From the NCBI GenBank assembly GCA_963801475.1, contig CAWDEX010000003.1:80904-144903 (forward strand): a stretch of DNA of 64,000 nucleotides, written 5' to 3'. The notes under the pieces are model-generated. The model made no database searches. It was given only the letters and a program-made list of their open reading frames with translations, and had not been told where the DNA came from. Shown here in pieces: positions 1 to 57,421 of this stretch. Source of the stretch: an uncultured Acidobacteriota bacterium (GTDB lineage: Bacteria > Acidobacteriota > Thermoanaerobaculia > UBA5066). Both the position numbers and the translations under genes were made by a program. Each line of letters begins with the position of its first letter. Position 1 is the stretch's first letter.

Positions 1-686
1 ACTTCGAGGTGGCCTACAACGATGCGCTCGCGCGCGCCACGACCCCGCTGCTGGCCTTCGTCGACACCGATGTCTTCTGGGTCTCGCGGGAAATCTGGGG
101 GCGAGTGCTCAGGAAGTTCGAACGGCCGGGCGTCGCGGCCGTCTCGTGCGTATCGCGCGAGGGCATCGGCAGCCCCGGGACCTTTGCCGTCGTGATGAGG
201 GTGGCGGCGTATCGCGACGCGCTACGTTCGGTCCCGGGAGGCTTCCTCCCGTTCGCCGAGCGCGAGGCATCGGGCCCGCCGCCGGGCCGCTGGATCGGCC
301 ACGATACCGGGGACCTCGTCGCCCGCGCCGTGCAGGCTTCAGGCTTCGAGGTCGAGTTGCTGCACCTCGAGAAGCAAGGCGACGTCGTGCGCTTTGATGC
401 GATCACCAACACGCGCCTGATCCGCGGCTGGACGGGGGAGGGGCCCTTCCTCGAGCTGGCCGTCCGGAAGCCCTACTTCCGCCGCGGCGCCCTGGGGAAC
501 CTCGTCCTCCATTCCCTCCATGATCGTCTCTTCCGGGACGGGCCGCGCTACGTGCCGCCGATTCCGGCGGGGAGGCTCTGGAGTGCGCTGGTCAGCCACC
601 CTCGCACGTTCCTTCGCGCCGTGGGGGAGTGGATTCGCTTCCGTGAGGGGGCCCGGCGAATCGAGCGGTTCCTGGCGGGCCCCTAA
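1..686 (+). CDS. 5'-truncated glycosyltransferase-like protein (possible GT2; C-terminal fragment entering the window)
   Basis: The ORF is open from the window edge, with its stop at 686. It has an 'LLAFVDTDVFW' DxD-like motif and no other recognisable signature. It overlaps the stop of the convergent GT4 gene by 4 nt. Confidence 0.3.
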   Translation, partial: FEVAYNDALARATTPLLAFVDTDVFWVSREIWGRVLRKFERPGVAAVSCVSREGIGSPGTFAVVMRVAAYRDALRSVPGGFLPFAEREASGPPPGRWIGHDTGDLVARAVQASGFEVELLHLEKQGDVVRFDAITNTRLIRGWTGEGPFLELAVRKPYFRRGALGNLVLHSLHDRLFRDGPRYVPPIPAGRLWSALVSHPRTFLRAVGEWIRFREGARRIERFLAGP

Positions 687-1801
687 CGGGACGAGACGAC
701 CTCCGCGTAGATTCTCTCGAAGCTCACCGCCGTGTGATCGGCGTCGTGCGCGAGGGCGAAGGCGCGCGCCCTGTCCCCCATCCGCCGCCGCCCCTCGCCA
801 TCGCGGAGGAGGGCGAGGATCCCCGCGGCGAGGGCGGCGTCGTCGCCCGACGGCACGGCGAGCGCCGCCTCGGGCGCGAGATCCGCGACGAGGCCGACCG
901 CCGTGCCGACCGTCGGAAGGCCGCAGAGAGCTGCCTCCAGGACGGCGACGCCCTGCGCTTCGTGGAGAGACGACTGGACGAAGAGAGCGGCGTGTCGGAA
1001 CAGGGGGACGAGCTTGCTCGAAGTGAGCGTGCCGTGAAAAGTGACACGGGTCCCGAGGCCGAGACGGCCGGCTTCGGCCTGGACGGCGCCCTCGAGCGTG
1101 TCTTCGCCGGCGACCTCGAGCGTGACTCGCGGCTCGGCGTCGACGACCCGCCGGAGGGCCCTGAGAAGCGTCGACTGGTCCTTGACCCGGTTCAGGCTCG
1201 CGACGTGGAGGAGCCGGAAAGCACTGCGTTCTTCCGGTTCACCGGGCGAAAAGAGGGAGGTTTCGGCGCCGAGGGGGACGACCTCGGTCGGGACGCCGAG
1301 AGTCGAAAGTCGCGCGGAGAGGTAGCGAGACCCGGCGGTCACGCGGACCGCCCGCGACAGGGCGAATCTCGTCTTGAGCCGTTCCCTCGGGAAGAGCCAG
1401 CCGCCGTAGCCGATCTCCGGAAGCGTGGTGACCTCGCCTCCCGCCACGTGGACGACGAGCGGCGTGCGGCTGCGAAGCGTCGCGAGGGCCGCGAGGGCGG
1501 CGGGCGACCCCGCCCAGAAGGCATGGACGACGTCGACCGGGCCCGCCTCCGCGAGGAGGCGCGCGAGGCGGGGAGCGGCGCGGAAAAGGCCCGTTCCGGG
1601 CAGGCCGTGTCCGGGCAGGCCGAGGTTGTGGACGGTCGCTCCGAGCAGGGGCCAGGTGCCGGGCTCGGCCTCCTGCCTCAGGGCGAAGACCCGGACGTCG
1701 TGCCGTCTGGCCAGACGCTCGATCAGGGAGATTAGAGCCGGAATGACGCGCTCGCTTCCCGACCTGTCGACGCCGCCGGGGACGACGAGAGCAATCCGCA
1801 T
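683..1801 (-). CDS. GT4-family glycosyltransferase
   Basis: 372 aa with the two-Rossmann GT-B architecture. The C-terminal region 'HVASLNRVKDQSTLLRA...EAQGVAVLEAALCGLPTVGTAVG' is typical of the GT4 EX7E region. Confidence 0.7.
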   Translation of the reverse strand: MRIALVVPGGVDRSGSERVIPALISLIERLARRHDVRVFALRQEAEPGTWPLLGATVHNLGLPGHGLPGTGLFRAAPRLARLLAEAGPVDVVHAFWAGSPAALAALATLRSRTPLVVHVAGGEVTTLPEIGYGGWLFPRERLKTRFALSRAVRVTAGSRYLSARLSTLGVPTEVVPLGAETSLFSPGEPEERSAFRLLHVASLNRVKDQSTLLRALRRVVDAEPRVTLEVAGEDTLEGAVQAEAGRLGLGTRVTFHGTLTSSKLVPLFRHAALFVQSSLHEAQGVAVLEAALCGLPTVGTAVGLVADLAPEAALAVPSGDDAALAAGILALLRDGEGRRRMGDRARAFALAHDADHTAVSFERIYAEVVSSR

Positions 1802-1810
1802 GGCGGGATG

Positions 1811-2977
1811 CTACCGGGCTCTTCGCGACGCCCGCTCCTCGACCAGCGCCCGGTACGCCGCCTCGGCCTGCCGTGAGATGGCGCTCCAGCTGGCGATCTC
1901 CTCGAATCGCCGTCGGACGGCCCGGCGCGCGTCGGCCGTGGACCGCGAGGCCCCGAGCCGCAGGGCGGCAGCGCAGGATTCCGCGTCCCCTGCCGGGAAG
2001 AGCTCTCCCGCGGCGCCGGCATTCGTCAGGAGGCGGTGCGGCGGGATGTCGCTCGCCACCGGGAAGGCCCCGCATGCCATCGCTTCGATGAGGGCGTAAT
2101 TCGATCCTTCGTCGGGACTCGAGGTCAGGAAGAGATCGGCCGCCGAGTACCAGGCCGGAAGCCCTTCGTGAGGAAGACGCCCCACGAGCCGGATTCGTTC
2201 CGTGAGACGCGGCGAGGAGGCGCGAAACGCCTCGACCTCGGCCAGACGCGGAGCCTCGGCATAAGCCATCGTCAGCGTCGCGCCGGGGAGGCTCTCGAGA
2301 GCACCCGCGAATCCGCGGAGCGCCGTGACCGGGTCCTTCCTCGCGTGAAGGCGTCCGACCCAGAGAATGGCGGGATCTCCGTCGAGGCCGGTCGCCGCGC
2401 GGGCGGCGTCCCGTGCGAGGGGCGCGAAGTCGCACGACCCTTCCACCACCTCGAACACCGGCCTCGCCGCAAGAACGCCTTTCTCCCGCCACGGCCGGCC
2501 GATCGCCTCGGCTGTGAAGAGGAACCCGTCGGCGAACGGATGGACGAGGCGCTGGAGACGGCCCCGCCAGCCTTCCTCCGGGCTCCCGCCGTGGTGTTGG
2601 ACGGCGAAGACGGGGCGCCGCGCCGTCAGCGCCAAAGACGCGGCGAGCTGGACGGGAAAGAGAAACCCGTTCCAGTGGACGACGTCCGGCCGATACGCGC
2701 GGAGAAGAGCGAGGAGTTCCGCCGGACGCGTCCGGGGCGTGGCGAGGTGCGCCTCCGGGTCGTCGGCGCGGAGATGGTACGAGACGCCGTCCCGGACGAG
2801 GTCCTCGTCGCGATGGAAGCGCTGAAAGGCCGTCGCGGAGACTCCCGGGCGCGCCGTGAGCGACTCGCAAAACCGTGTCGCGGTCGGAAGACGATCGAGC
2901 AGGCTCGCGCCGTCCGGTGCGTCGGAGAAGGCGAGGTTCACGTACGCGACGCGGAGACGGTTCAAGGTCCCTGTCAC
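1811..2977 (-). CDS. GT4-family glycosyltransferase
   Basis: 388 aa. The C-terminal 'GRLHARKDPVTALRGF...SPDEGSNYALIEAMACGAFPVASDI' matches the GT4 nucleotide-sugar binding region. It lies in tandem with the preceding GT4. Confidence 0.65.
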   Translation of the reverse strand: MTGTLNRLRVAYVNLAFSDAPDGASLLDRLPTATRFCESLTARPGVSATAFQRFHRDEDLVRDGVSYHLRADDPEAHLATPRTRPAELLALLRAYRPDVVHWNGFLFPVQLAASLALTARRPVFAVQHHGGSPEEGWRGRLQRLVHPFADGFLFTAEAIGRPWREKGVLAARPVFEVVEGSCDFAPLARDAARAATGLDGDPAILWVGRLHARKDPVTALRGFAGALESLPGATLTMAYAEAPRLAEVEAFRASSPRLTERIRLVGRLPHEGLPAWYSAADLFLTSSPDEGSNYALIEAMACGAFPVASDIPPHRLLTNAGAAGELFPAGDAESCAAALRLGASRSTADARRAVRRRFEEIASWSAISRQAEAAYRALVEERASRRAR

Positions 2978-3047
2978 CGTAGACGATTCCCGGCGTGACT
3001 TCCAGCGCGCCGCGCGGGCCAGCAGCGTCCGTATACTGGCTCGCTCG

Positions 3048-3713
3048 ATGAAGACGGTCCTGGCGCCGGACGCGGCGTACCGCCTCTGGGCCCCGACCTA
3101 CGAGGAGGCCGGAGCGCTAGCGGCGCTGGACGAGCTGGCGCGGACCCGCCTCGACCCCGAGCCCGCGCCGCCGCTCCTCGACGCGGCGTGCGGAACCGGC
3201 CGCCGCCTGAAGACGGCGGCGGGAGGGTGGCGCCGCGAAGCCGCCGGGATCGACGCCGTCCTCGAGATGCTCCGCGCGGGTGGGCCCGGGGGACCGGTCG
3301 CCGTCGCGGATCTTCGAAGGCTTCCCTTCGGGAGCGATTCGTTCCGGACGGCCTGGTGCCGACTCGCCGTCGGCCACCTCGGCGATCTCGCCGGCAGCTA
3401 CCGCGAGCTCTCGCGCGTCCTGTCGCCCGGAGGGCATCTGCTCGTCACCGACTTTCACCCGGAAGCGGCCCGGCGGGGAATGGCCCGGACCTTCCGGAGC
3501 GGGGGAGCGGTCTGGGAAGTTGAGCATCACATCCACGAGATCGCGGCTCATCGGCGGAAAGCCGCCGCCTCGGGTCTCGAGATCGAGGACGTTCTCGAAC
3601 TGGCCGTGGGAGAGGACGTGCGCCCCTTTTTCGACACGACGAAAGCGGTCGGGCTGTACGAGCGGGTGAAGGGCTTGCCGGTGCTTCTGGCCCTCCGGAT
3701 GCGCCGTGACTGA
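3048..3713 (+). CDS. class I SAM-dependent methyltransferase
   Basis: It carries the 'LLDAACGTGRRL' SAM-binding motif I. The first ATG that does not overlap the upstream GT4 is at 3048; the track ORF 2856-3713 extends spuriously upstream. Its stop overlaps the start of the amidohydrolase by 8 nt. Confidence 0.6.
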   Translation: MKTVLAPDAAYRLWAPTYEEAGALAALDELARTRLDPEPAPPLLDAACGTGRRLKTAAGGWRREAAGIDAVLEMLRAGGPGGPVAVADLRRLPFGSDSFRTAWCRLAVGHLGDLAGSYRELSRVLSPGGHLLVTDFHPEAARRGMARTFRSGGAVWEVEHHIHEIAAHRRKAAASGLEIEDVLELAVGEDVRPFFDTTKAVGLYERVKGLPVLLALRMRRD

Positions 3714-4917
3714 GGCGACCCTCCCGACCGGGACGCGGCCGGCTCCTCCGGTCGCGGTGGTCCTGGCGGGGATCCGGGTCGTCACGCCGAGCGGCGTCTA
3801 CCCGGGCCCGCTGAGGATTTCCGGGGGGATCGTGGACGGCGGGGCGCCGCGGCCCGGCGACCGCGTCGTCCGCCTCGAAGGACACCTCGTCCTCCCCGGG
3901 CTCCTGAACGCGCACGACCACCTGCCGCTCAACGCCTTTCCGGAGGTGCCGGACCTGGGGACGTTCGGGAACGCCGCCGACTGGATCGACGCCCTTCGAC
4001 CGGTCCTCGACTCGATCCCGTTCCGCGCGGCGCGGGCGATCGACCCGGAGGTCCGCGCGCGTCACGGGGCGCTGAAGAACCTCCTGGCGGGCGTGACGAC
4101 CGTCGCCCACCACGATCCGTGGCTCGACCCGATGGGGGGTGCGGACTTTCCGGTCCGCGTTCTCTCGCCCTATGGCTGGTGTCACTCGCCGCGCCTCGCC
4201 GGACGGTACGGTCCCGGCCTCGAGGAGAGTCACGCGATGACGCCGGCGGGCGCCCGATGGTTCATTCACCTCGCCGAAGGGACGGACGGGGAGGCCCGGG
4301 GCGAGGTGACGCTTCTCGACCGCCGGGGGCTCCTGGGTCTGGAGACGGTCGCCGTCCACGGCGTCGGATTCAGCGAGAAGGACGTCGCACGGTTCCTCGC
4401 GGCCGGCTCTTCTCTCGTCTGGTGCCCGTCCAGCAACCTGAAGATCCTCGGGAAGACGCTCGACCCCGGCCCCGTCGCGCGGGCGGGCCGCCTCGCCCTC
4501 GGGACCGACTCCCGGCTGAGCGGCTCGAGGGACCTGCTCGACGAGCTTCGCGCCGCGCGCGACGCGTCCCAGCTGCCGGCCGCCGCCCTTCTCGGGCTCG
4601 TCACGACGAATGCGGGGGAGGTCCTCGGCCTTCGGGGCGCCGGAGCGCTCGAACCCGGCTCGCCGGCCGACCTCGTCGTTCTGCGGGACCCGGGCGGCGA
4701 CCCCTGCGAGGCGATTCTCGGAACGCGGCGCGCGGACCTCCGGGCGGTCGTCACCGGCGGCGTTCCGCGGGTTGCCGATACCGATCTTCTGACGTGGCTC
4801 TCGGCCGCGGGAGCCGCGCCGCGCCCGGCCCGGCTGGACGGAGCCGCCAAGCTCGTCGACGGGAGGATCTTCGCCGGTGAGGCGGCGGCACTGGAACCGG
4901 GGCTGACGCTGTCGTGA
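3706..4917 (+). CDS. metal-dependent amidohydrolase-family hydrolase
   Basis: 403 aa with an N-terminal 'LLNAHDHLPLN' HxH metal-binding motif, characteristic of the amidohydrolase/deaminase superfamily. It is translationally coupled to the upstream methyltransferase. Confidence 0.6.
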   Translation: MTEATLPTGTRPAPPVAVVLAGIRVVTPSGVYPGPLRISGGIVDGGAPRPGDRVVRLEGHLVLPGLLNAHDHLPLNAFPEVPDLGTFGNAADWIDALRPVLDSIPFRAARAIDPEVRARHGALKNLLAGVTTVAHHDPWLDPMGGADFPVRVLSPYGWCHSPRLAGRYGPGLEESHAMTPAGARWFIHLAEGTDGEARGEVTLLDRRGLLGLETVAVHGVGFSEKDVARFLAAGSSLVWCPSSNLKILGKTLDPGPVARAGRLALGTDSRLSGSRDLLDELRAARDASQLPAAALLGLVTTNAGEVLGLRGAGALEPGSPADLVVLRDPGGDPCEAILGTRRADLRAVVTGGVPRVADTDLLTWLSAAGAAPRPARLDGAAKLVDGRIFAGEAAALEPGLTLS

Positions 4918-4933
4918 GGCGAGGGCCCGCCGC

Positions 4934-6352
4934 TCAGGAGAGGGCCGGTTCGGGAAAGAGAAGCTGGCCGAGGGCTTTCTCGAGCGGGAGGGCGAAGACG
5001 TTCCGTTCGCATCGCCACCGCGCCACGCGCTGGAGGGGGCGCTTCCACGCCGTCGGCTCCGCGTAGCCGAGGCGCTGGTAGTACTTGTACCGCTCCACCA
5101 GGCGGTTCCGCTCGGGCGTCACCCAGGGGCTGTCGGCGTCGTAGAAGTCGAACCGGGCCCACTCGTCCAGCGTCTGCGGCGGACGGTAGCCGGCCCGCAC
5201 GGCCTCCTCGGTCAGGGGCGTCCCGGGATACGGCTTGAAGTAGAAGATCGGCGTCTCGAAGAGGGGACTCATCGCCCGGAGCCGCCGGGCCGCGTCGAGG
5301 CTCATCCGGATGCTCTCGTCGCTCTCGCCGGGAAAGCAGACGATGAACGGAAACTGGACCCTCACGCCGTGGCGAAGACACTTCTCGGCGGAGAGGAAGA
5401 CCTGCTCGAGGCGGATGTCCTTCCGGATCCGGTCCAGCATCTCCTGCGAGCCGCTCTCCACGCCGAGGAGGACGCGGCGGAGGCCCGAGCGCCGGACCTT
5501 GGACATCACCTCGTCCGTGAGGCGAACGCCCTGGTCCGCGCGCAACGTGGCCGCCCAGGAGATCGGAAGCTCCCGGCGGAGGATCTCCTCGGCGATCGCG
5601 TCGACGCGCGAAAGGGAGGTGAAGAAAGTCTCGTCCTGGAAGTTGACGTCGTCGAATCGATGGGTTCGGTGGAGCCGTTCCAGCTCCTCGCCGAGGCGGC
5701 CGGGAGCAAGGCCGGTCCACTGGCGCCCGTAGACGTACGGGTCGGCACAGAAGGCGCAGCGGAAGCGGCACCCCTGCGAGGCGATGTAGTCGATCTGCCG
5801 CTTGCCCTTCTTCTCGAAGTACCGTTCGACGGGGAGGAGGCCGTAGTCGTGCGGGGCGAAGCCTTGGACCGCCGCGAACGTCCGTGCCGGGTTCCGAACC
5901 GCCGTTCCGTCCGTGTCGCGGCAGGCGCACCCGGCGCAGCCGACGAGCGAAGTCCCGGCCGCGAGCCGCTCCAGGATCTCGACGAACGTCTCCTCGCCCT
6001 GTCCCTGGACGGTCGCGTCGACGGAGGGCTCCTCGAGGCATTCCGTCCCGAAGAGCGAAGGGTGCCAGCCGCCCCAGACGACGGGGAGATCCGGGAATCG
6101 CGCCTTCGCCGCCCGTGAGACGGCCAGCGCGTCGCGGATCGGCGCCCCCGTCAGGACCGAGACGCCGAGAGCGAGTGCGCCGGGGAGCTGCGCGAGAAGC
6201 GCGGCGACCGGGTCGTCCTCGAGCCGCCCGTCGACGATCACGACCTCGTACCGGTCCTTCGGCAGGTGCGAGCCGACGGCAAGCGGCCCGAGCGGCATCG
6301 TCCAGAAGACGGCGCGGGGGTTGTAGAGGACGACCTTCCGCCGCGCGCTCAT
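4934..6352 (-). CDS. B12-binding (class B) radical SAM protein, paralog A
   Basis: N-terminal cobalamin-binding-like domain 'KVVLYNP...MPLGPLAVGSHL', then radical SAM 'SQGCRFRCAFCADP' (CxxxCxxC). The start ATG is at 6350-6352 (MSARRK). The track ORF 4934-7237 has a spurious N-terminal extension that is antisense-overlapping the next gene. Confidence 0.75.
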   Translation of the reverse strand: MSARRKVVLYNPRAVFWTMPLGPLAVGSHLPKDRYEVVIVDGRLEDDPVAALLAQLPGALALGVSVLTGAPIRDALAVSRAAKARFPDLPVVWGGWHPSLFGTECLEEPSVDATVQGQGEETFVEILERLAAGTSLVGCAGCACRDTDGTAVRNPARTFAAVQGFAPHDYGLLPVERYFEKKGKRQIDYIASQGCRFRCAFCADPYVYGRQWTGLAPGRLGEELERLHRTHRFDDVNFQDETFFTSLSRVDAIAEEILRRELPISWAATLRADQGVRLTDEVMSKVRRSGLRRVLLGVESGSQEMLDRIRKDIRLEQVFLSAEKCLRHGVRVQFPFIVCFPGESDESIRMSLDAARRLRAMSPLFETPIFYFKPYPGTPLTEEAVRAGYRPPQTLDEWARFDFYDADSPWVTPERNRLVERYKYYQRLGYAEPTAWKRPLQRVARWRCERNVFALPLEKALGQLLFPEPALS

Positions 6353-7428
6353 CGCGGGGCCTCCGTTCCGGCGGGGACGGCTTCCCTCAGGTTCAGCCGG
6401 CAGATGCAGCGAACGCAGACCGGATTTGTGGCGACATCGAGCGCCTCGCGGAAGGTGCGGGCGGCCGGAGCGTTCACGAGCGTCCCGAGAGACTCTCCTT
6501 CCCCGAGCGTTCCGTACGACCGGTGGAAGAAGCAGGGCCTCACGGAGCCGTCGACCCCGACGACCGCGGAGACCCAGGGCGCATTGCATCGCGACGGGGG
6601 AGGCGGTGCCGCACCGGCGATCGTCGCGAAGTGCCCGAGGATCCGCTCCCGGAGCTTCGCCGGGCTCTCTTCGATGAAGCCGGACTCGAAGTCGGCGGCA
6701 TGCCGTCCGGCGAGGTCCTCGAGGACGCGCTCGAGCTCGGGAAGCTCCTCGGGAGACAGGGCGAGAGCGGACGCGGGCGTCTCGCCTCGCCCGCCGGGGC
6801 GGTTGAAAGCCTCGCTCGAGACGTCGACGGCGAGAAAGCTGATGTGCCGAAACGCCAGGATCTTCGCCGCGTCTACCGTGGCCGGAAGGTGCCGGAAGTT
6901 CCCCTTCTGGACCGTGCAGCGCCCGCCGACGGGAAGCGAAGGCCGCGCGGCCGAGAGCGCGGTCACGCCGGCCGCGATCCGGTCGAAGGCGCCGGGGGTG
7001 CCTCGCAGCGCGTCGTGCACTTCGCGCGGCCCGTCGAGGCTGACGATCACCTCGTCGACCAGGGGCGCGAGGAGATGCGCCTTCCGGGGCAGGAGGGTTC
7101 CCGAGGTCAGGACCGTGACCGCGACGCCCGCTTCCTTCAGGACCCGGCAGAGCCCGCCGAGATCCGGGTGCATCAGGGGCTCGCCCCCGGTCAGAACGAC
7201 GTTCGATACGCCGAGGCGCCGCCACTCCGGAAGCCATCCGGCGACGTCGGCAACCCGGATTTCCCGCGAATCCTTCACTTTCCAGATGTCACACATGACG
7301 CAGCGGCAGTTGCACCGGCTCTGGACCTCGAGGAGGAGGACCGGCAGCCGCGTCACCGGCTCCCGCTTCGGGAGGAGCGGCCCGGTGCCCGGCCGGCGGG
7401 CGGCGGTCCGGAGCGGCGCGGCGCTCAT
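6349..7428 (-). CDS. radical SAM protein with C-terminal SPASM/twitch-like auxiliary-cluster domain
   Basis: 'SRCNCRCVMCDIW' is a CxxxCxxC motif about 35 aa from the N-terminus. The C-terminus has 'CNAPWVSAVVGVDGSVRPC' (CX13GX4C) followed by 'CVRCIC'. The start ATG at 7428 (MSAAPL) overlaps the upstream stop by 4 nt (ATGA). There is no N-terminal RRE/PqqD-like extension. Confidence 0.7.
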   Translation of the reverse strand: MSAAPLRTAARRPGTGPLLPKREPVTRLPVLLLEVQSRCNCRCVMCDIWKVKDSREIRVADVAGWLPEWRRLGVSNVVLTGGEPLMHPDLGGLCRVLKEAGVAVTVLTSGTLLPRKAHLLAPLVDEVIVSLDGPREVHDALRGTPGAFDRIAAGVTALSAARPSLPVGGRCTVQKGNFRHLPATVDAAKILAFRHISFLAVDVSSEAFNRPGGRGETPASALALSPEELPELERVLEDLAGRHAADFESGFIEESPAKLRERILGHFATIAGAAPPPPSRCNAPWVSAVVGVDGSVRPCFFHRSYGTLGEGESLGTLVNAPAARTFREALDVATNPVCVRCICRLNLREAVPAGTEAPR

Positions 7429-8207
7429 GCCGCCCTCTCGAAGCGGAGAAGGACGTGATCGGCGAGATGCGGAAGGGGCCAGGCTCCCTCCAGCCGGCGC
7501 TCGGCGCGGTCGAGGGCGTCGAGGAGCCCGGGGTGACGGTCCGCCCACCGTCCCGCGTACGTGGGCGGAAGGAGTGCGCCGATCGCGCGCGCCTCGCGAA
7601 AATTGAAGCCGGGAGCGAAGGAGCGTCGAACGAGGCCGAGGCCCGGATAGACGACGGTCAGGCCGCGCCAGGCGACGCCGCGCCGCGAATACCGGCGAAA
7701 GGCCTTTCGCGCCTCGCCGTGGAGGAAGGACCATGCCCACTCCCAGGGCACCGCCCGTCCCATGAGGACGAGGACGAGAGGCGCGCCCGGGCGGAGTATC
7801 GAGGCGAGAGCGCGCGCCGGAGCGCTGAGGTCCGCCACGCAGTTCAGGGCGCCGAAATTCGAATACGCGCCGTCGAACGGGCCGTCCCGGAGGCCACCGA
7901 GCGCCTCGATCGGGCGCGTCTCGACGCGGACGCGGCCAGCCAGCCCCTCTCGGGCGACCTTGGCGAGAGCCGCGTCGGCCATGGGGGGAGAGGCGTCGAG
8001 CGCGTGCACCGAGACGCCGCGCGCCGCGAGATGGACCGCGTCCTCGCCCGTTCCGCAGCCGAGGTCGAGGACACGGGAGCCTCCAGGGAACGCGGCGTCG
8101 AGGTGCCGCCAGACGGCGCGCCGGAGGCGCTGGCCGAGCGGCGTCGCGGTGAACTCGGCGTCGTAGTTCGCGGCGAGGGCGTCGAAGGGGGAAGCGGCCG
8201 CGGTCAT
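7425..8207 (-). CDS. class I SAM-dependent methyltransferase
   Basis: 'RVLDLGCGTGEDAVHLA' motif I. ATG at 8207 (MTAAASPFD). It has 4-nt overlaps with both neighbouring genes. Confidence 0.65.
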   Translation of the reverse strand: MTAAASPFDALAANYDAEFTATPLGQRLRRAVWRHLDAAFPGGSRVLDLGCGTGEDAVHLAARGVSVHALDASPPMADAALAKVAREGLAGRVRVETRPIEALGGLRDGPFDGAYSNFGALNCVADLSAPARALASILRPGAPLVLVLMGRAVPWEWAWSFLHGEARKAFRRYSRRGVAWRGLTVVYPGLGLVRRSFAPGFNFREARAIGALLPPTYAGRWADRHPGLLDALDRAERRLEGAWPLPHLADHVLLRFERAA

Positions 8208-9598
8208 GCCTCGACCTCGCCCGCGGCCGCGAGGAGACCGTCCCGCGCCGTCCGGGCCTCGGCCCGCTTCGCGGCCGCGGCCGCCGGATCGGAGGCGTCG
8301 AGACGGTGCGCCTCGACCTCGCTCCTGAGCCACCGGTCGGCCTGACGGTAGTAGGCGCGGCTGTGCCGCCCGGCGATCCGGTGGTCGCGGTCCGTCGCGT
8401 CCTCCCAGGCCTTATCGAGAACGACGCGTCCGGCCACCTTCCCGAAGTAGCCGGTGTTCCGGATGGGATAGGAGACCGTCGTGAAGAAGACGTCGGGCCC
8501 CGCCTGCTTGACGTGCTCGATCGTCGCCTCGATGTCCTCCACCGTCTCGCCGTCGTACCCCCACATCAGGAACATCCCGACCCCGATGCCGTGTCGCTGC
8601 GCGGCCCGGGTGGCCCACCGCACCTGCTCCACGGTCACTCCCCGTTGCATGGCGTCGAGGATCCGCTGGCTGCCGCTCTCGGAGCCGATCCAGATCCGCG
8701 AGCACCCCATCGCCGCGAGGGTCTCGAGAACCTCTTCCTTCATCATCCGGTCGGCCCGCGAGATCGTCTCGAACGGGATCCGGAGTCCGCGGGACTTCAG
8801 CTCCCGCGCGTAGGCGAAGAGCCAGCCGTGCTGCAGCGTGAAGACGTCGTCGGCGTACCAGAGCTGGTCGGGGCGGTACCGGTCGCGGATCCGCTCGACC
8901 TCGGCGGCCACGTTCGCCGGCGAGCGGCGGCGGTGCGTGAACCCGAAGACGGCGTGCGAGCACCAGTCGCACTTGTACGGACAGCCCCGGGCGGTGATCA
9001 GGTTGACGCTTCCCGCGCCGTGGTGCCTCCTCCAGACGTCGACGTACGCCGCGGTGTCGATCGCCTCGCGGTCCGGATCGGGGAGGAGGTCGAGGTCGGG
9101 GATCTGCGCCCGCTCGCCGTTCGTCACGACGCGCCCGTCCCCGTCGCGAAAGACGGTCCCCGCGACGCCGTGAAGGCGGTGCGGCCCGCGGGCGGCGAGG
9201 GCGGGCAGGAGGTCCGCCATCGTCTCCTCCCCCTCGCCGAGGACGACGACGTCCGCGCCCCGTTCCAGGTACTCCGCGGGATAGTTCGCGCTCTCCGGGC
9301 CGCCGAGGACGACCGTGAAGCCGAGCGACTTCGCCCGGGCCGCGATCTCGACGACCGGCCGCCGCGTCATGAGGTTCGTGTAGAGGCCGAGGACCTTCGT
9401 CCCCGGCCACGCCTCCAATGCGGCGTCAAGCTCGTCCCTCGTCCGGAAGGTCGTGTCGAAGACCTCGACGGCGACGCCGCGGCTCTTCAGGAAGGCCGAC
9501 ACGTAGAGAAGACCGAGAGGCGGATACGGCTTCATGATCTGCCGCTCCTTCTCGTCCTCGGCGAGGAAGTAGCCGTGCGAGAGGAGAAGGTCGCTCAC
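8204..9598 (-). CDS. B12-binding radical SAM protein, paralog B
   Basis: 'LLLSHGYFLAEDEKERQIMKPYPPLGLLYVSAFL' B12-binding-domain N-terminus and 'TARGCPYKCDWCSHA' CxxxCxxC. The start is chosen as GTG 9598 (VSDLLL) by alignment with paralog D (MAGRRLLLAHSFFL), giving a GTGA overlap with the upstream gene. An alternative ATG lies at about 9535. Confidence 0.75.
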   Translation of the reverse strand: MSDLLLSHGYFLAEDEKERQIMKPYPPLGLLYVSAFLKSRGVAVEVFDTTFRTRDELDAALEAWPGTKVLGLYTNLMTRRPVVEIAARAKSLGFTVVLGGPESANYPAEYLERGADVVVLGEGEETMADLLPALAARGPHRLHGVAGTVFRDGDGRVVTNGERAQIPDLDLLPDPDREAIDTAAYVDVWRRHHGAGSVNLITARGCPYKCDWCSHAVFGFTHRRRSPANVAAEVERIRDRYRPDQLWYADDVFTLQHGWLFAYARELKSRGLRIPFETISRADRMMKEEVLETLAAMGCSRIWIGSESGSQRILDAMQRGVTVEQVRWATRAAQRHGIGVGMFLMWGYDGETVEDIEATIEHVKQAGPDVFFTTVSYPIRNTGYFGKVAGRVVLDKAWEDATDRDHRIAGRHSRAYYRQADRWLRSEVEAHRLDASDPAAAAAKRAEARTARDGLLAAAGEVEA

Positions 9599-10971
9599 GC
9601 GTCCTCGCGGAACGCGGGCCGGAGGTGCCCGTATTCCTGCGAGTTGGCCGGCGTGAGGCCTCCGGACGCCGCGGCGAAGGCCGCCACCCGGGCCCTCAGC
9701 TCGGGCTTGAGCCACGGCACACGCGGGTCCTCGTGCGTCATCCACCCCATCCACTCGGGCTCGATCCACTCTTCGAGCGAACCGGGCGTACCGTCGATCG
9801 GATCGACGTTCCCGTACGTCCCGCGCCTCTGCGGCGTCGGCGTGTAGTAATAGGTGATCAGCTTCATCGTCGGGTTCACAGCCTTGAGACGCCGGATGAA
9901 GGCGAGTGTCTTTTCGGCCTCGGCCTCGGGGTCGTCGGGATCGCCGAACATGAAGGAGAACTCCGGAACGATGCCGTGCTCCCGGGCCCTCGCCGCAAAC
10001 GCAAGGGTCTGCTCCGTCGTCAGGTTCTTCGACATCCTCGCGAGGGTCGCGTCCGATCCCGACTCGGCGCCGAGGTAGACCATGGTGCAGCCGGAGCGGC
10101 GGATCTTCTCCCATGTCCGGTCGGAGAAGCGGAGCATGACGTCGATCCGGGCCTCGCACCACCAGCGAAGCTCCAGCGGAGTCATCCGTTCGGCGATCTC
10201 GCCGGCGTGCGCCTCGGACTGGAAGAAGTTGTTGTCGTAGAAGTGGAGACCGTCCATCCCGTGCCCCCGGACGAGGCCGGAGAGGTTCTCGACGGTCCGG
10301 GCGGGGTTCTCGAATTTCTCCCGGCTTCCGTAGACGGAGATCACGCCGCAGAAGTTGCACGTGTAAGGGCAGCCGATCGAGGCCTGGTAGACGCCGCTCC
10401 GCCGGCCGAGAAAGGTCGGTTCGAGATAGTCATCCACGTCGATTCGCCCGTACGGAGGCGGCGGCAGCTCGTCGGGACCGACCCACGGCCGTTCGGCGTT
10501 CAGCCGGACGGACCCGGCCTCCTTCCAGCCGAGACCGGCGACCGACGAGGGTTCGCGACGGCCTTCGAGAACTTCGAGAAGCTCGAGGAACGTCCGCTCA
10601 CCCTGGCCGCGCACGATCCAGTCGACGTACGGTGCGGCCAGGACCGTCCCCGGATAGAGGGAAGGAAAGTACCCGCCCCAGACGACGGGAACCCGTGGAA
10701 ACCTCTTCTTCAGCCTCTTCGTCAGCGGGACGGCGGCGGCGAGCTGCGGGCCGGGCATGACCGTGAACGCCAGCAGGCGAACGCGGTCGCCTGCCGCTTC
10801 GGCCGCTTCGGCCCGCTGGACGACGGCGTTGAAGACGTCCGGGTCCGGCCGGTTTCCGTCCACGATGTCCCACGTTTCACCCTCGGGAAGCGCGGCCCCG
10901 AGCGCCATGACGGAGAGAGGGAACCGCCGATGGAGGGGCCTCGTCGCCCGGGGGTTGATCAGGAGGATCAT
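9595..10971 (-). CDS. B12-binding radical SAM protein, paralog C
   Basis: 'MILLINPRATRPL...' N-terminus typical of B12-rSAM enzymes, and 'SIGCPYTCNFCGV' CxxxCxxC. 458 aa. Confidence 0.75.
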   Translation of the reverse strand: MILLINPRATRPLHRRFPLSVMALGAALPEGETWDIVDGNRPDPDVFNAVVQRAEAAEAAGDRVRLLAFTVMPGPQLAAAVPLTKRLKKRFPRVPVVWGGYFPSLYPGTVLAAPYVDWIVRGQGERTFLELLEVLEGRREPSSVAGLGWKEAGSVRLNAERPWVGPDELPPPPYGRIDVDDYLEPTFLGRRSGVYQASIGCPYTCNFCGVISVYGSREKFENPARTVENLSGLVRGHGMDGLHFYDNNFFQSEAHAGEIAERMTPLELRWWCEARIDVMLRFSDRTWEKIRRSGCTMVYLGAESGSDATLARMSKNLTTEQTLAFAARAREHGIVPEFSFMFGDPDDPEAEAEKTLAFIRRLKAVNPTMKLITYYYTPTPQRRGTYGNVDPIDGTPGSLEEWIEPEWMGWMTHEDPRVPWLKPELRARVAAFAAASGGLTPANSQEYGHLRPAFREDA

Positions 10972-10981
10972 GGCGCGGGCG

Positions 10982-12457
10982 CTATGACGCGTCCCGGGCG
11001 CCGGCCGCCGCGGCGCGCGGAAGACCGGCGGAGGGGAGGATCTTCCGCTCGGAGCGGAAGTCCGCCTCGCGCCAGGCGAGGTCCTTCCAGGCGTCGTCGA
11101 TCGCCGCCGGCTCCATGGGCCCTTCCCGTCCCGTGAGGACGAGCGCCTCGGCGTGCAGGAGGTCGCGCACGGTCCGGTAGAACGGGCTCGTGTAGGTCCC
11201 CTCGAAAAGCATCGCCAGCTCGTCCGTGTCGCTCCAGTTCTTCTGGTTCCGCATCTGATCCCGGACGCGGTCGTAGAACACGGTGCCCGGGAGAGGGTAA
11301 GAGACGGAGACGCCGATGTCGTGCGGCCGCTCCTCGCGGAGGAGCTGGCGCGTCGAGAGAATCTCCCCCCACGTCTCGCCCGTGTAGCCGAGCTGGAGGA
11401 ACCACGACGGGAGGATCCCGTGGCGTTTGAGGAGCCGGGTGGCCGACCGGGTCTGCTCCACGCGCGCCCCCTTGTCCATCGCGTCGAGGACCTTCTGCGA
11501 GCCCGACTCGACCCCCATCCAGACCTCCTCGCACCCGGCGTGGGAGAGGGCGGCGACGGCCGAGGGGGTCATCAGGTCGATGCGCGACTGCATCGTGAAG
11601 GGGATCCGGGCGTCCCGGCGGTCCACCTCCTCGGCGAACGACTCGATCCAGCGCGGCGTCAGGCCGAAGATGTCGTCGGCGAACCAGAGGTGGTCGGGGC
11701 GGACACGGGTCTTGAGCGCGGCCATCTCGTCGGCGACGGCCTGAGGGCTCCGCTGCGCGTACCGCGTGCCGTAGAGGGGCTTCGCGCACCAGTTGCAGCG
11801 GTAGGGGCAGCCGCGGGTCGTCACGGCGTTCCATGAGAAGCGCCCGTGCGCCCGCAGCCACGTGGCCCGGTAGCGCGCGGCGTCGACGAGGTCCCACGCG
11901 GGAAGGGGGAGGGCGTCGAGGTCCTCGAGGAACGGGCGGGGCGGTGTCCGGTGGACGAGGCCCCCCTCCGCGGGCAGGGCGAGCCCTGCGATCCCGGTGA
12001 GGCACGGCACGGGAGCGGCCCACGCGGCGACGAGCTCGGGGGCCGTCCGCTCGGTCTCGCCGAGCATCACGGCGTCGGCTCCGGCCGCGAGGTAGAGCTC
12101 CGGGCGGTCGGCCGCGTCGGGGCTGTTCACGGCCACCGGAAGGCCCCGCTCCTTCGCCGCGCGAATCATCGCGAGGGTTCCCTCCCGCATCCGGGTCGTG
12201 CACATCTTCGTCAGGAAGTTGAAACCGTCCTCGATGAGGAGAACGGCGGCGAAGCGCTCGCCCGCGAGGCGCGGCACGAACTCCTCCTCGCCGGGGGAGA
12301 GCATGGCGTCGAAGAGGGCCACCTCGTACCCGCGAGACCGGAGGACCGCCGCGGTCAGAAGCGTGGCGAGAGGCGGGTAGGGACGCATCTTTCTCGTCTG
12401 CTTCGCGTCGTGCGCCAGGAAGAAGGAATGGGCGAGGAGGAGGCGCCGGCCGGCCAT
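10982..12457 (-). CDS. B12-binding radical SAM protein, paralog D
   Basis: 'MAGRRLLLAHSFFLAHDAKQTRKMRPYPPLATLL' and 'TTRGCPYRCNWCAKP'. The ATG at 12457 is preferred by homology with paralog B over the track start at 12475. Confidence 0.75.
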   Translation of the reverse strand: MAGRRLLLAHSFFLAHDAKQTRKMRPYPPLATLLTAAVLRSRGYEVALFDAMLSPGEEEFVPRLAGERFAAVLLIEDGFNFLTKMCTTRMREGTLAMIRAAKERGLPVAVNSPDAADRPELYLAAGADAVMLGETERTAPELVAAWAAPVPCLTGIAGLALPAEGGLVHRTPPRPFLEDLDALPLPAWDLVDAARYRATWLRAHGRFSWNAVTTRGCPYRCNWCAKPLYGTRYAQRSPQAVADEMAALKTRVRPDHLWFADDIFGLTPRWIESFAEEVDRRDARIPFTMQSRIDLMTPSAVAALSHAGCEEVWMGVESGSQKVLDAMDKGARVEQTRSATRLLKRHGILPSWFLQLGYTGETWGEILSTRQLLREERPHDIGVSVSYPLPGTVFYDRVRDQMRNQKNWSDTDELAMLFEGTYTSPFYRTVRDLLHAEALVLTGREGPMEPAAIDDAWKDLAWREADFRSERKILPSAGLPRAAAAGARDAS

Positions 12458-12464
12458 AATGAGA

Positions 12465-13391
12465 CTATATCTCACTTGATCGCGCGATGGTTTCGAGACG
12501 GCGGAGGGCTCCGGCGAGGTCCCGGGCGCCGTCCAGCCGGAATCCGCCCCGGGCCCCCCAGGCGCGGGCGAGGACGTCCGGGTCCGCCCCGTCCCGCTCC
12601 TGCGGGATCTCCCCGTCCCGGAACGCCGCGGCGAACGCCTCGGCCGGGAGCGACACGAGCGCTGCCGGCGTCCGATCGCGATCTCCGAGAAGAACCGCGG
12701 CGGCGAGCCGGGCGTGGCGGGCTACGGGCGACGTCCCGGTCCAGAGGTCGACCCGCCGCTTCGCCTCGCCGCCTGTAAACGCGGGCTCCGTCCGGTCGAA
12801 GAGGCCGAGAAGCTCCGCGCCGTCGGGAAGGAGCGTCAGGTCACGGACGCCGGCGGCCAGTTCCTCCGGGTCCTCGCGGGCCACGAGGAGGCTCTCGTCG
12901 GCCAGGACGGAAAGGCCCTCGCCGGCGAGCGCCGCCGCGAGGGTCGACTTTCCGGCTCCCGGACCGCCGCGGATCACGATTGTGCCTCGTGGCCCGACGA
13001 TGGCGGCCGCGTGAAGGATCTGCCACTTCCGGCGGGAGAGGAGCGCCGTCGCCGGCGCCTCGAAAAGGTAACGCGCCGCAAGGGCCGGATCCCGCGAGAG
13101 GAGAGCGCGGGACACACGCGCCTCGACACGCGCCGCCGTCACATCGATCCGCGCGCGGAGGAGATCGCCAAGGGCCAGCTCCCAGCCGTCACGTCTCCTC
13201 TTCCAGACGAGTCCGCGCTCCGGGAGCTGGCCTGCCTCCGGGCCCTCGAGAACGGCAACGTCGAACCGGATCGCGTCCGGATCGGCCTCCCGAGCGGGCT
13301 CCCAGAGCGTCTCGGCGAGGACAAACGGCAACGGGTCGTCCGAAGTGAGGACGAGTCGGTCGCGGGGCGGAGCGAAGACTCTGACGGGCAA
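12465..13391 (-). CDS. HPr-kinase-C-terminal-domain-like P-loop kinase (HprK-related)
   Basis: 'VIRGGPGAGKSTLAAALAGEGLSVLADESLLV' matches the HprK C-domain Walker-A pattern plus 'L(V/A)(A)DE'. It has no HprK N-domain. It is the first gene of the rSAM operon. Its start codon is uncertain (TTG/GTG). Confidence 0.55.
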   Translation of the reverse strand: MPVRVFAPPRDRLVLTSDDPLPFVLAETLWEPAREADPDAIRFDVAVLEGPEAGQLPERGLVWKRRRDGWELALGDLLRARIDVTAARVEARVSRALLSRDPALAARYLFEAPATALLSRRKWQILHAAAIVGPRGTIVIRGGPGAGKSTLAAALAGEGLSVLADESLLVAREDPEELAAGVRDLTLLPDGAELLGLFDRTEPAFTGGEAKRRVDLWTGTSPVARHARLAAAVLLGDRDRTPAALVSLPAEAFAAAFRDGEIPQERDGADPDVLARAWGARGGFRLDGARDLAGALRRLETIARSSEI

Positions 13392-13450
13392 TCAGGGAAA
13401 CTCGCGCAACCTTTTCCGGGGTATCGGCGTCCATACTCTCACGGAGAGGA

Positions 13451-17668: not shown

Positions 17669-17674
17669 GCCGGG

Positions 17675-18208
17675 CTACTCGCGGACCCAGACGTTCGAGG
17701 CCGGATTCCAGCGGAACGCGGCGACGGCTCCGGACGGGCAGCAGTTCGCGTCGCCGTCCTGGTAGACGGGGAAGCGCCGCCGGAGGACGCCGCCCGCGGC
17801 CGTGTACGTGTCGTGTCCCCGGTATCCGGTCTGCTGGTCGGGCATCAGGTCGGCGACGATCCCGCCGTGGAACCGCTCTCTCTTCCACTCCCAGATGTCG
17901 AGTCGCCCGTACGCACCGCTCCCGGACGACGAGATGAAGACGACCAGGTCGCGATTTCCGTCGCCGGTGACGTCCTCGAAGAAGACGTTCGTGATCGTCC
18001 CGTCGCGCTTGAGCTTCACGACCTGGGGCCTCATCCCTTTCCCGGTGATCGTGACCGTGTAGCTCCCGATGGCGCACGGTTCTTTCGGCGGCACCGTCAC
18101 GTGGACGGTGACGCCGTCACCCGCCAGCATCGAGTCGTACGCGCAGCCCGCGCCGGCGAGAGCCCGGGAGGCGAGGGACAAGACGACGGCGGCGACGGTG
18201 CGTCGCAT
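17675..18208 (-). CDS. putative lipoprotein, function unknown
   Basis: It has a lipobox 'LAGAGC' after an h-region, a 'DVTGDGNRDLVVF' FG-GAP-like segment and a C-terminal Cys pair 'ANCCPSG'. Function is unknown. Confidence 0.4.
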   Translation of the reverse strand: MRRTVAAVVLSLASRALAGAGCAYDSMLAGDGVTVHVTVPPKEPCAIGSYTVTITGKGMRPQVVKLKRDGTITNVFFEDVTGDGNRDLVVFISSSGSGAYGRLDIWEWKRERFHGGIVADLMPDQQTGYRGHDTYTAAGGVLRRRFPVYQDGDANCCPSGAVAAFRWNPASNVWVRE

Positions 18209-18249
18209 GGTGGTGGGGGAGTCTAGCGCCGCCGGTCATAATCCCCCCC

Positions 18250-56943: not shown

Positions 56944-57235
56944 CGCGCAGCGCGCCCGGATTCTCCTTGACCGGCCAGGATGAAAAGTACTGCACCCCGC
57001 TACGGGCCGCACCTCGAGAGGTGTCGACGCGGCCAGGATGGGCGTGAGAAAAGAGGGTTCCCGGGTGACGAAGGTGCACCGGGGAGCGGGCGCTCTTCTC
57101 CATCGGAAGGCGGGAGATCACGACGGTGTTCGACGGTCCGGGCGACGTCCAACGCGGCGGCACTTCTTCTGCTACGAACCGCTCCGGAGAATAGGGGCCG
57201 CTCTTCGGAATGGCCGTAAGGCCTCCGGGATCAGG

Positions 57236-57311
57236 TGGTAGCGCATACGGGACTCGAACCCGTGTTTCCGCCGTGAGAGGGCGGCGTCCTGGACCGCTAG
57301 ACGAATGCGCC
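57236..57311 (-). tRNA. tRNA-Glu (anticodon CTC)
   Basis: The reverse complement GGCGCATTCGTCTAGCGGTCCAGGACGCCGCCCTCTCACGGCGGAAACACGGGTTCGAGTCCCGTATGCGCTACCA folds as a cloverleaf. It has a 7-bp acceptor stem, anticodon stem CCGCC/GGCGG with loop CTCTCAC, a T-loop GGTTCGAGTCC and an encoded CCA. It closely resembles bacterial tRNA-Glu. Confidence 0.8.
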
Positions 57312-57351
57312 GTGTCCCGGGCGGCGGGGCTCGTCCCCGCGCGGACCGCGG

Positions 57352-57380: not shown

Positions 57381-57421
57381 CCGGGGACGGTGCCGCGGAG
57401 GCGATGGCCCGGTCGGAAACC

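Follow-up and report, generated by a model that had tools for sequence, protein, structure and literature searches.

The described systems closest to the genes considered here are the lasso peptide, aminoglycoside, hopanoid and SynChlorMet (SCM) gene clusters, together with the COG0402-type deaminases and chlorohydrolases. The genes lie at the left end of a 64,000-nucleotide stretch of DNA from an uncultured Acidobacteriota bacterium of the class Thermoanaerobaculia (positions 80,904 to 144,903 of contig CAWDEX010000003.1, assembly GCA_963801475.1), hereafter the window. There, glycosyltransferase (GT), methyltransferase and amidohydrolase genes are packed against an operon encoding radical S-adenosylmethionine (SAM) enzymes (rSAMs) and an HprK-like protein, and we found window positions 3-13391 to be one copy of a widespread, conserved, multi-operon cassette. 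The cassette is familiar in kind, as a tailoring-rich glycoconjugate gene cluster, while its combination of parts (up to five B12-type rSAMs, an HprK-like/NTP_transf_5 pair and a deaminase-type amidohydrolase) has not been described. A literature search yielded no paper describing the gene set, the Xanthomonas campestris pv. campestris locus tags used in that search being estimates that may be wrong.

In the pseudomycoidin lasso cluster, the HprK-family kinase PsmK phosphorylates a serine, and hexose addition depends on PsmN, an uncharacterised nucleoside triphosphate (NTP) transferase (PMC6993621). The likeness to our cassette is the pairing of an HprK-family kinase with an NTP transferase, PsmN being comparable by its description as an NTP transferase. 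In contrast to the pseudomycoidin cluster, the cassette lacks a lasso cyclase, B1/B2 proteins and a precursor peptide, and its HprK-like protein scores far below the curated models. An HprK-like protein also accompanies radical SAM/SPASM enzymes in the SCM cassette and the HprK-related kinase A/B systems, and we obtained weak matches to ScmC, ScmE, ScmF and HprK_rel_A/B; however, the scores fall far short of the cutoffs (ScmC 20 bits vs 125, ScmE 57 vs 400, HprK_rel_A 36 vs 200) and a PqqD-family partner was not seen.

AprD4 is a radical SAM diol dehydratase, and aminoglycoside tailoring also uses B12-dependent rSAM sugar C-methyltransferases. The resemblance to this type of tailoring lies in rSAM4, which is nearest to AprD4, in MT1, which is near a glucose O-methyltransferase, in the GT4 enzymes and in the general logic of sugar tailoring by rSAMs (gene names as listed below). 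Unlike aminoglycoside pathways, the cassette showed no 2-deoxy-scyllo-inosose synthase/aminotransferase set, its AprD4 model score was 70 bits vs 500, and polysaccharide-export genes are its neighbours elsewhere. The hopanoid side-chain genes (HpnH, HpnI, HpnK, HpnJ and HpnR) similarly combine an rSAM, a B12-binding rSAM (B12-rSAM), a glycosyltransferase and a hydrolase. Our B12-rSAMs have HpnJ and HpnR among their better NCBIfam matches, yet at 55-109 bits against cutoffs of 578-650, and squalene-hopene cyclase and other hpn genes were seen in no locus; HpnK is, moreover, a different kind of hydrolase from the cassette amidohydrolase. That amidohydrolase shares the (beta/alpha)8 fold, the HxH/H/H/D ligands and the HxxE and CPxSN motifs with the COG0402-type deaminases and chlorohydrolases (Tm0936, 4f0r, 4gbd, guanine deaminase, TrzN/AtzA, aminofutalosine deaminase). 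In contrast, it is only about 20% identical to them (template modelling score, TM, ~0.67), is about 40 residues shorter, has a conserved middle region specific to its family, and sits in a GT4/rSAM/NTP_transf_5 gene context unlike any of theirs.

A multi-operon cassette conserved across several phyla

The window has a base composition of 72% GC, and because long spurious open reading frames (ORFs) are frequent at such GC, real frames were picked by the GC content of third codon positions (GC3). The reading frames of the block at 683-4934 and of the adjoining rSAM gene were backed both by GC3 and by public gene calls on a contig with identical proteins, whose lengths are the same (372, 388, 221, 403 and 472 amino acids, aa). 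The genes and gaps of the window copy, with the basis of each assignment, are as follows:

3-686, plus strand: tail of the edge gene, a GT-A/GT2-like C-terminal domain of an 805-aa NTP_transf_5 (PF14907) fusion (GC3 0.87, weak PF00535, public gene call)
683-1801, minus strand: GT4a, a GT4-family (GT-B fold) glycosyltransferase of 372 aa (Pfam)
1811-2977, minus strand: GT4b, a second GT4-family glycosyltransferase, 388 aa (Pfam)
2978-3047, no strand: divergent intergenic region between GT4b and MT1, 70 bp (sequence read)
3048-3713, plus strand: MT1, a SAM-dependent methyltransferase of class I, 221 aa (Methyltransf_11)
3706-4917, plus strand: 403-aa enzyme of the amidohydrolase superfamily, active site of the deaminase/chlorohydrolase type (Amidohydro_1, motifs)
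4918-4933, no strand: gap between the convergent stops of the amidohydrolase and rSAM1, 16 bp (sequence read)
4934-6352, minus strand: rSAM1, a radical SAM protein with a B12-binding domain, 472 aa, last gene of the minus-strand operon (PF02310 and PF04055)
6349-7428, minus strand: radical SAM/SPASM protein, 359 aa (Radical_SAM and SPASM)
7425-8207, minus strand: MT2, a class I methyltransferase of 260 aa (Methyltransf_25)
8204-~9610, minus strand: rSAM2, a B12-binding radical SAM protein of ~468 aa, start approximate (PF02310 and PF04055)
9595-10971, minus strand: rSAM3, a B12-binding radical SAM protein of 458 aa (PF02310 and PF04055)
10982-12475, minus strand: rSAM4, a radical SAM protein with a B12-binding domain, 497 aa (PF04055; PF02310 slightly below cutoff)
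12465-13391, minus strand: HprK-like P-loop protein, 308 aa, first gene of the minus-strand operon (weak HprK-related matches)

A profile-guided scan of one genome per species returned at least 573 stretches encoding a relative of the amidohydrolase. We took the best 80 of these loci with 10-kb flanks, scored them by tblastn with query proteins from the window and from Xanthomonas, and counted components in the 60 of these 80 with at least 8 kb on both sides (individual loci are denoted by L-numbers). A methyltransferase and a B12-rSAM were present in every one (60/60 each), a GT4 enzyme in 59/60, an NTP_transf_5 protein in 50/60 and an HprK-like protein in 44/60, and some of the missing components merely lie past the 10-kb flank. 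Ten of the best 80 loci had no rSAM or no GT4 match; nine of them are truncated contigs, and the tenth, L080, has full flanks and lacks GT4. At that locus (Candidatus Ribeiella danica, 758-18370), a DUF2142 membrane protein and a DUF6687 protein are encoded instead of a GT4 match, and an APH-family kinase gene is found a few kb downstream on the opposite strand.

The loci come from Thermoanaerobaculia, other Acidobacteriota, Holophagales, Gemmatimonadota, Acidithiobacillales, a Chloroflexales-binned contig and many Xanthomonadales. Across them, the recurrent parts are NTP_transf_5, one or two GT4 enzymes, two types of class I methyltransferase, the deaminase-type amidohydrolase and the HprK-like P-loop protein, together with one to five B12-domain radical SAM enzymes and with or without a SPASM radical SAM enzyme. 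The full set is kept beside the Thermoanaerobaculia amidohydrolase copies that are 68% and 61% identical to ours, and at both closest Thermoanaerobaculia loci the GT genes are separated from the methyltransferase by a B12-rSAM gene that shares its strand with the GT4 gene(s). A reduced set accompanies the copies of Xanthomonas bundabergensis (49% identical) and X. campestris (47%). The Xanthomonas order runs methyltransferase, amidohydrolase, methyltransferase, (B12-rSAM), GT4, GT4, NTP_transf_5, B12-rSAM, HprK-like, ABC (ATP-binding cassette) exporter, and the smallest cassette, that of X. campestris, has a single rSAM gene and still keeps the amidohydrolase. X. campestris ATCC 33913 and 8004 carry the amidohydrolase as an annotated conserved hypothetical protein (AAM40971.1 and AAY49604.1), and the full reduced cassette is present in one X. 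campestris genome assembly. Both gene order and flanking genes vary between lineages and genomes, the latter as expected for a discrete accessory cassette.

The preliminary description of this DNA had read the GT, methyltransferase and amidohydrolase genes as one accessory island with the rSAM genes, and had named the conservation of GT and amidohydrolase genes beside unrelated neighbours as the observation that would speak against it. Such a pattern did not appear in the 60 well-flanked loci, and the rSAM/GT/methyltransferase set was found to co-occur in Acidobacteriota, Gemmatimonadota, Acidithiobacillales and Xanthomonadales, in support of the island. In an opposing view, the GT, methyltransferase and amidohydrolase genes would serve housekeeping functions of their own, lipopolysaccharide or exopolysaccharide core synthesis being an example, and would be chance neighbours of the rSAM operon. 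GT4 and class I methyltransferase genes are indeed common, the two units are convergently transcribed and the overall GC equals that of the rest of the window; nevertheless, we consider this view very improbable, as the same gene set occurs in every sufficiently long locus, in several phyla and in several gene orders, a synteny that contradicts chance adjacency, and as in other lineages the rSAM genes are interleaved with GT and methyltransferase genes. We conclude that one system, in two transcription units, comprises the 683-4934 block and the rSAM operon, which are not independent neighbours. The island is also larger than first described, extending from the NTP_transf_5/GT-A fusion beyond the left edge to the end of the HprK-like gene at 13391.

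A search for carriage of the amidohydrolase on plasmids returned two distant homologues only (30% identity). We rejected plasmid carriage of the cassette, the homologue that was examined sitting in an unrelated Azospirillum plasmid context. This homologue (L088, 13711-16527; 31% identity) is part of a 938-aa protein encoded on the conjugative plasmid p5 of Azospirillum argentinense, and its surroundings contain peptidase, GMC oxidoreductase and phosphodiesterase genes but no rSAM genes.

At the level of single junctions, the earlier reading of the block was borne out. The two GT4 genes lie in tandem on the minus strand with 9 nt between them (GT4a ATG at 1801, GT4b stop at 1811-1813); MT1 and the amidohydrolase overlap by 8 nt (MT1 TGA at 3711-3713, amidohydrolase GTG start at 3706, overlap GTGACTGA); and 16 bp separate the convergent stops of the amidohydrolase (4915-4917) and rSAM1 (4934-4936). 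The gaps read in the window cassette thus measure 9, 70 and 16 bp, while neighbouring minus-strand genes either overlap or almost abut. The packing without terminator space that had been described at the rSAM junction was confirmed: a search for intrinsic terminators in 1-14000 returned none at the convergent junction or between genes, and nothing else except two matches at below-chance level, both intragenic. A GC-rich inverted repeat (GAACCGGGGC...GCCGGUUC) at 4894-4951 covers both convergent stops with a predicted energy of -34 kcal/mol and no T tract, and this stem was not significant when compared with shuffled sequences (z = -1.7 and -1.1). We did not find a sigma-70 consensus in the 70-bp region at 2978-3047, which presumably holds a bidirectional promoter. 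Relatives keep the convergent arrangement of amidohydrolase and rSAM genes; the gap measures 17 bp in the P0005 contig, and in L002 the genes overlap by 6 nt. The tight methyltransferase-amidohydrolase junction also recurs: the P0005 contig likewise has an overlap of 8 nt there, and the Xanthomonas amidohydrolase is preceded by a 3-nt gap and followed by a 4-nt overlap.

The fragment entering from the left edge had been described as GT2-like and as sharing 4 nt with GT4a. The overlap stands, the plus-strand TAA (684-686) and the minus-strand TAG of GT4a (read as 'cta' at 683-685) being convergent stops that share 683-686. The GT2-likeness of the fragment by itself is weak: 3-686 alone scored 17.7 bits against PF00535, where the gathering cutoff is 23.3 and the N-terminal part of the domain falls outside the window. 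Its homologues are GT-A proteins of ~295 aa from Thermoanaerobaculia, many of them with a precomputed PF00535 match and some named GT family A at the source. According to the public gene table, the fragment supplies the C-terminal part of a product of 805 aa that matches PF14907 (NTP_transf_5) at its N-terminus and whose gene starts upstream of the window. The corresponding parts are separate adjacent genes in L087, where NTP_transf_5, a ~90-aa repeat domain and a GT2-like gene follow one another in the same order as in the fusion, and the ~90-aa G/W/F-repeat domain probably lies inside the 805-aa fusion of the window genome, beyond the left edge.

Proteins or domains with this ~90-aa G/W/F repeat (GGxF/GGxW) were observed in L086 (8792-9064) and L087 (15246-15527 and 9462-9731), always directly upstream of, or fused to, a GT-A-like gene, and they match no Pfam family. 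Separately, a small WXXGXW-repeat protein (PF12779) adjoins the NTP_transf_5 gene in two unrelated loci (L087, 7876-8199; L018, 14683-14928), and the start of the L087 protein resembles a lipoprotein signal peptide.

Enzyme families and composition of the cassette

Both GT-B halves of GT4a and GT4b exceed the Pfam gathering scores, placing the two proteins in the GT4 family. GT4a matched Glycos_transf_1 (PF00534, 89.5 bits) and Glyco_trans_4_4 (PF13579, 68 bits), and its closest solved structures are BshA, PimB' and MshA; GT4b matched Glycos_transf_1 (54.9 bits), Glyco_trans_1_4 (PF13692, 60.8 bits) and PF13439 (33 bits), and is closest to Tll1590 and PimA. MT1 and MT2 are both class I methyltransferases by their Pfam scores (Methyltransf_11, 49.3 bits vs a cutoff of 21.2, for the SAM-dependent MT1; Methyltransf_25, PF13649, 56.2 bits vs 27, for MT2), and the closest solved structures of MT1 include the D-glucose O-methyltransferase 6uv6. 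Each has a Xanthomonas counterpart: a 232-aa methyltransferase after the amidohydrolase for MT1 (32% identity) and a 282-aa methyltransferase before it for MT2 (38%).

The radical SAM enzymes rSAM1 to rSAM4 are predicted to belong to class B (cobalamin-dependent): CxxxCxxC motifs are readable in the translations, and rSAM1 to rSAM3 match both PF02310 and PF04055. In rSAM4, PF04055 scored 70 bits and PF02310 30.8 bits, slightly under the cutoff of 32.1; its closest solved structure is AprD4 (6fd2, E = 6e-15), and it is 46% identical to Xanthomonas rSAMb, the sole rSAM type kept in the smallest (X. campestris) cassette. The SPASM enzyme (6349-7428) matched Radical_SAM at 68 bits and SPASM at 28.9 bits, and its best NCBIfam match, BlsE, reached 80.9 bits, far under the cutoff of 400. 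Against the NCBIfam models HpnJ, HpnR, BchE, ladderane-type lipid rSAM, PhpK, BzaD and ApyD, the B12-rSAM proteins scored at best ~100-123 bits (cutoffs 360-750). Likewise, neither the window HprK-like protein (HprK-related kinase A 36.1 bits and B 24 bits, cutoffs 200; also a weak Hpr_kinase_C match) nor its Xanthomonas counterpart (precomputed PF07475; HprK-related kinase 41.7 bits vs 200; ScmC 20.2 vs 125) reached the cutoffs for HprK-related kinase A/B or ScmC.

The preliminary description had suggested looking for atypical base composition. Overall GC proved not to be atypical (0.714 for the twelve cassette genes vs 0.705 for twenty other window genes), while GC3 is modestly lower in the cassette (0.873 vs 0.917; Mann-Whitney p = 0.003, 12 vs 20 genes), a mild signal that is compatible with either an older transfer or lower expression. 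Comparing window 683-13391 with L002, L006, L009, L018 and L077, we observed two sets of affinities. MT1, the amidohydrolase, rSAM1, rSAM2, MT2 and GT4b are nearest to the Thermoanaerobaculia type (47-70% identity), and GT4a, rSAM3, rSAM4 and the HprK-like protein are nearest to the type of L018 (Acidobacteriota) and L077 (Acidithiobacillales), at 55-74% identity. By protein, GT4a is 73% identical to the L018 copy and 69% to the L077 copy; rSAM1 shares 69% identity with the copy of L002 and 71% with that of L077; rSAM2 is 68-70% identical to Thermoanaerobaculia copies; and rSAM3 is 64-69% identical to the copies of L010, L018, L077, L053 and L076, but only 43% to the Thermoanaerobaculia paralogue. 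Horizontal spread is suggested by the identities of 64-71% that link an Acidobacteriota-like genome to an Acidithiobacillales one, and the mosaic as a whole suggests that recombination between two cassette lineages, along with cross-phylum transfer, may have shaped the window copy.

The amidohydrolase falls within its superfamily by its Pfam score (Amidohydro_1, PF01979, 60.1 bits vs a cutoff of 25) and forms a tight family, 22 other aligned members being 46-71% identical to the window protein. Invariant in the 23 orthologues are H70, H72, H188, E191, H218, D268, W239-C240-P241 and S243-N244, so that the metal ligands HxH, H, H and D are conserved, HxxE is read as H188-L-A-E191, and the WCPxSN motif is invariant. 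HxxE after the fifth strand, in combination with CPxSN, is what we take to mark the deaminase/chlorohydrolase (COG0402-type) subgroup of the superfamily; both motifs are present, and the top profile and fold matches all belong to this subgroup. In a profile search of PDB sequences, the best matches (E ~1e-18 to 1e-13) were the adenosine/methylthioadenosine (MTA) deaminases 4dyk, 4gbd and 4dzh, and, in the same range, DR_0824, 8-oxoguanine deaminase, the MTA/S-adenosylhomocysteine (SAH) deaminase 4f0r and Tm0936. An AlphaFold2 model built from the alignment (predicted local distance difference test score 91.6) was searched with Foldseek, which returned the matches of the profile search and, in addition, TrzN, AtzA, isocytosine deaminase and guanine deaminase, at TM ~0.67 and ~20% identity. 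Against NCBIfam equivalogs (MTA/SAH, 5'-deoxyadenosine, guanine, aminofutalosine and 8-oxoguanine deaminases), its best scores were 35-64 bits, the cutoffs being 320-779.

With respect to chemistry, either deacylation or deamination had been proposed for this enzyme. Its active-site signature and closest structures favour a deaminase-type reaction, and the deacetylase families LmbE/PIG-L, YdjC, CE4, LpxC and NagA are absent from its Pfam matches and from its 25 best NCBIfam matches. We read the amidohydrolase as a separate family that would carry out deaminase-type hydrolysis.

Because MTA/SAH/5'-deoxyadenosine-type deaminases are among its nearest relatives, a clean-up role is conceivable, in which the enzyme, instead of acting on the pathway product, would deaminate 5'-deoxyadenosine, SAH or MTA given off by the rSAMs and methyltransferases of the cassette and relieve product inhibition. 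Consistent with this role, the closest solved relatives include Tm0936 and MTA/adenosine deaminases (4gbd with methylthio-coformycin, 4dyk and 4f0r), MTA/SAH deaminase and 5'-deoxyadenosine deaminase models appear in its NCBIfam list, and the window cassette encodes five radical SAM enzymes and two methyltransferases. A 5'-deoxyadenosine deaminase of the amidohydrolase superfamily has, in addition, been described in a methanogen. However, the matches on which this role would draw are remote (36 bits vs cutoffs of 522-779, ~20% identity, TM ~0.67, with sequence coverage mainly of the C-terminal half), and triazine hydrolases, guanine deaminases and isocytosine deaminases score as well as MTA/adenosine deaminases do. 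Since the family has its own strongly conserved N-terminal half, and since the amidohydrolase is retained even in the single-rSAM cassette, a dedicated substrate is suggested, and we regard the clean-up role as rather doubtful.

Surface-glycan neighbours and the putative product

The neighbours of the cassette in other lineages were informative with respect to its product. In Xanthomonadales, it usually follows FdtA/DegT/Wzx-type flippase/GT2/Wzz genes (48-49 of the 60 loci), and the copies there have a half-size ABC exporter at the cassette end. At both Gemmatimonadota loci, a Wza-type Poly_export/SLBB protein is encoded downstream on the same strand, followed in L053 by a weak GNVR-domain protein, and several Acidobacteriota and Acidithiobacillales versions of the cassette contain GT9 genes. 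This link to surface polysaccharides in other lineages takes in the whole cassette, rSAM genes included, and leaves block and rSAM operon together. The Wzx/Wzz/Wza neighbours, the GT9 genes and the sugar-acting solved relatives (AprD4, the glucose O-methyltransferase and BshA/MshA/PimA/PimB') all point to a sugar or an exported glycan. With moderate confidence, we infer a single cassette with a sugar-based product that it builds and tailors; a surface polysaccharide or glycolipid that is exported would most likely contain this product as a unit or side group.

Several points weigh against this assignment. The best 80 loci are dominated by related Xanthomonadales and are therefore not 80 independent observations. 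GT4 enzymes and methyltransferases belong to common families, so the synteny draws its weight from the rarer families (B12-rSAM, NTP_transf_5 and HprK-like); as a rough estimate and not a formal null, a genome with a handful of B12-rSAM genes would have one in a random 20-kb stretch in only a few percent of cases. Some Xanthomonadales copies (L027 and L030) have no upstream Wzx/Wzz neighbours, and the unrelated upstream genes found in some Xanthomonadales indicate that the cassette is a unit of its own and not a fixed part of a Wzx/Wzy locus. Among the annotated window genes, there is no flippase, polymerase, initiating phosphoglycosyl transferase or exporter. All likeness to sugar-acting enzymes is remote (E = 1e-9 to 1e-15, 18-23% identity), and no cassette protein reaches any curated NCBIfam equivalog cutoff. 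To our knowledge, the HprK-like kinases whose function is known have protein or peptide substrates, and the likeness of PsmN to the NTP_transf_5 protein is one of description. Finally, the assignment of a product draws on sequence and gene context.

The HprK-like protein also bears on a different possibility, namely a role of the cassette in ribosomal peptide maturation or protein modification, with C-methylation by the B12-rSAMs, serine phosphorylation by the HprK-like protein, addition of sugars by NTP_transf_5 and the GTs, and ABC export. A pair formed by an HprK-family kinase and an NTP transferase does have a role in a lasso peptide cluster (PMC6993621), and there are weak matches to rSAM models for peptides made by the ribosome and modified post-translationally, RiPPs (ApyD at 84-108 bits and the rSAM_ocin_1 family), as well as the weak ScmC match of the Xanthomonas HprK-like protein and the half-size ABC exporter at which Xanthomonadales copies terminate. 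Every RiPP model, however, scored far under its cutoff, and no conserved precursor gene was found, the window cassette having no free intergenic space and the rSAM/HprK intergenic regions of the 14 loci scanned having no small ORF in common. Nor did we see PqqD or RiPP recognition element proteins, a lasso cyclase, an asparagine-synthase-like cyclase or a leader peptidase in the annotated loci. Altogether, we think a peptide or protein substrate unlikely. The ~90-aa G/W/F-repeat proteins of L086 and L087 were considered as a universal substrate and rejected, being absent from the other 86 loci as well as from the window and in some cases fused to an enzyme. An anti-phage defence system was likewise rejected, PADLOC returning only marginal matches to generic domains.

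Returning to a sugar-based product, the predicted activities could be arranged as follows. GT4, GT-A and, in some relatives, GT9 enzymes would assemble sugars, on which the radical SAM enzymes may carry out C-methylation, deoxygenation or rearrangement at unactivated carbons, and to which the class I methyltransferases would add O- or N-methyl groups. By analogy with the lasso peptide precedent, the HprK-like and NTP_transf_5 pair might phosphorylate a hydroxyl and then transfer a further group onto the phosphate. The amidohydrolase would remove by hydrolysis an amino or comparable group borne by a carbon of amidine or N-heterocycle type, either in a pathway intermediate or in the adenosine-type by-products of the many SAM-using enzymes, and export would be left to genes that vary with the lineage. 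We put forward tentatively, as one possibility, that these steps make up an undescribed pathway, in which B12-type rSAMs remodel the sugars of an exported glycan or glycolipid, the HprK-like/NTP_transf_5 pair adds a phosphate-linked substituent to a non-peptide substrate, and a dedicated deaminase-type amidohydrolase edits an intermediate bearing a nucleobase or an amidine. The outcome would be a new class of surface decoration shared, via horizontal transfer, by soil Acidobacteriota, Gemmatimonadota and plant-associated Xanthomonadales.

The cassette is of interest as a set of ~13 kb with four B12-type radical SAM enzymes that is conserved in hundreds of species without matching a curated family model. 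As X. campestris, a plant pathogen, carries the cassette and is genetically tractable, the product could be identified there. If surface glycan decoration is indeed its function, the cassette may affect plant-host and phage recognition, would widen the range of substrates for cobalamin-dependent radical SAM chemistry and would extend the HprK-like kinase/NTP-transferase pair beyond peptides.

Other features of the window

To the right of the cassette, the window encodes a secreted repeat protein of 1405 aa, followed by a PliI-like protein and by Mfd, and further on SurA, RNase D and the dcw genes (MraW, FtsI, FtsW, FtsA and FtsZ). The gene for the 1405-aa protein (13451-17668) is divergent from the HprK-like gene, and its product has a hydrophobic, signal-peptide-like N-terminus and 12 CarboxypepD_reg repeats. 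A long unannotated gene (>1120 aa) occupies the equivalent position in the 68%-identical relative, and none does in L002. An Hsp70/MreB-like ATPase gene (42823-44319) lies a few kb downstream of ftsZ, and on the minus strand we observed genes for a GT87-family glycosyltransferase (44316-45638) and a HAMP/SpoIIE phosphatase (45574-47604). GC drops from ~0.72 to ~0.65-0.66 in the final 7 kb of the window (57000-64000), and the genes called there keep a high GC3.

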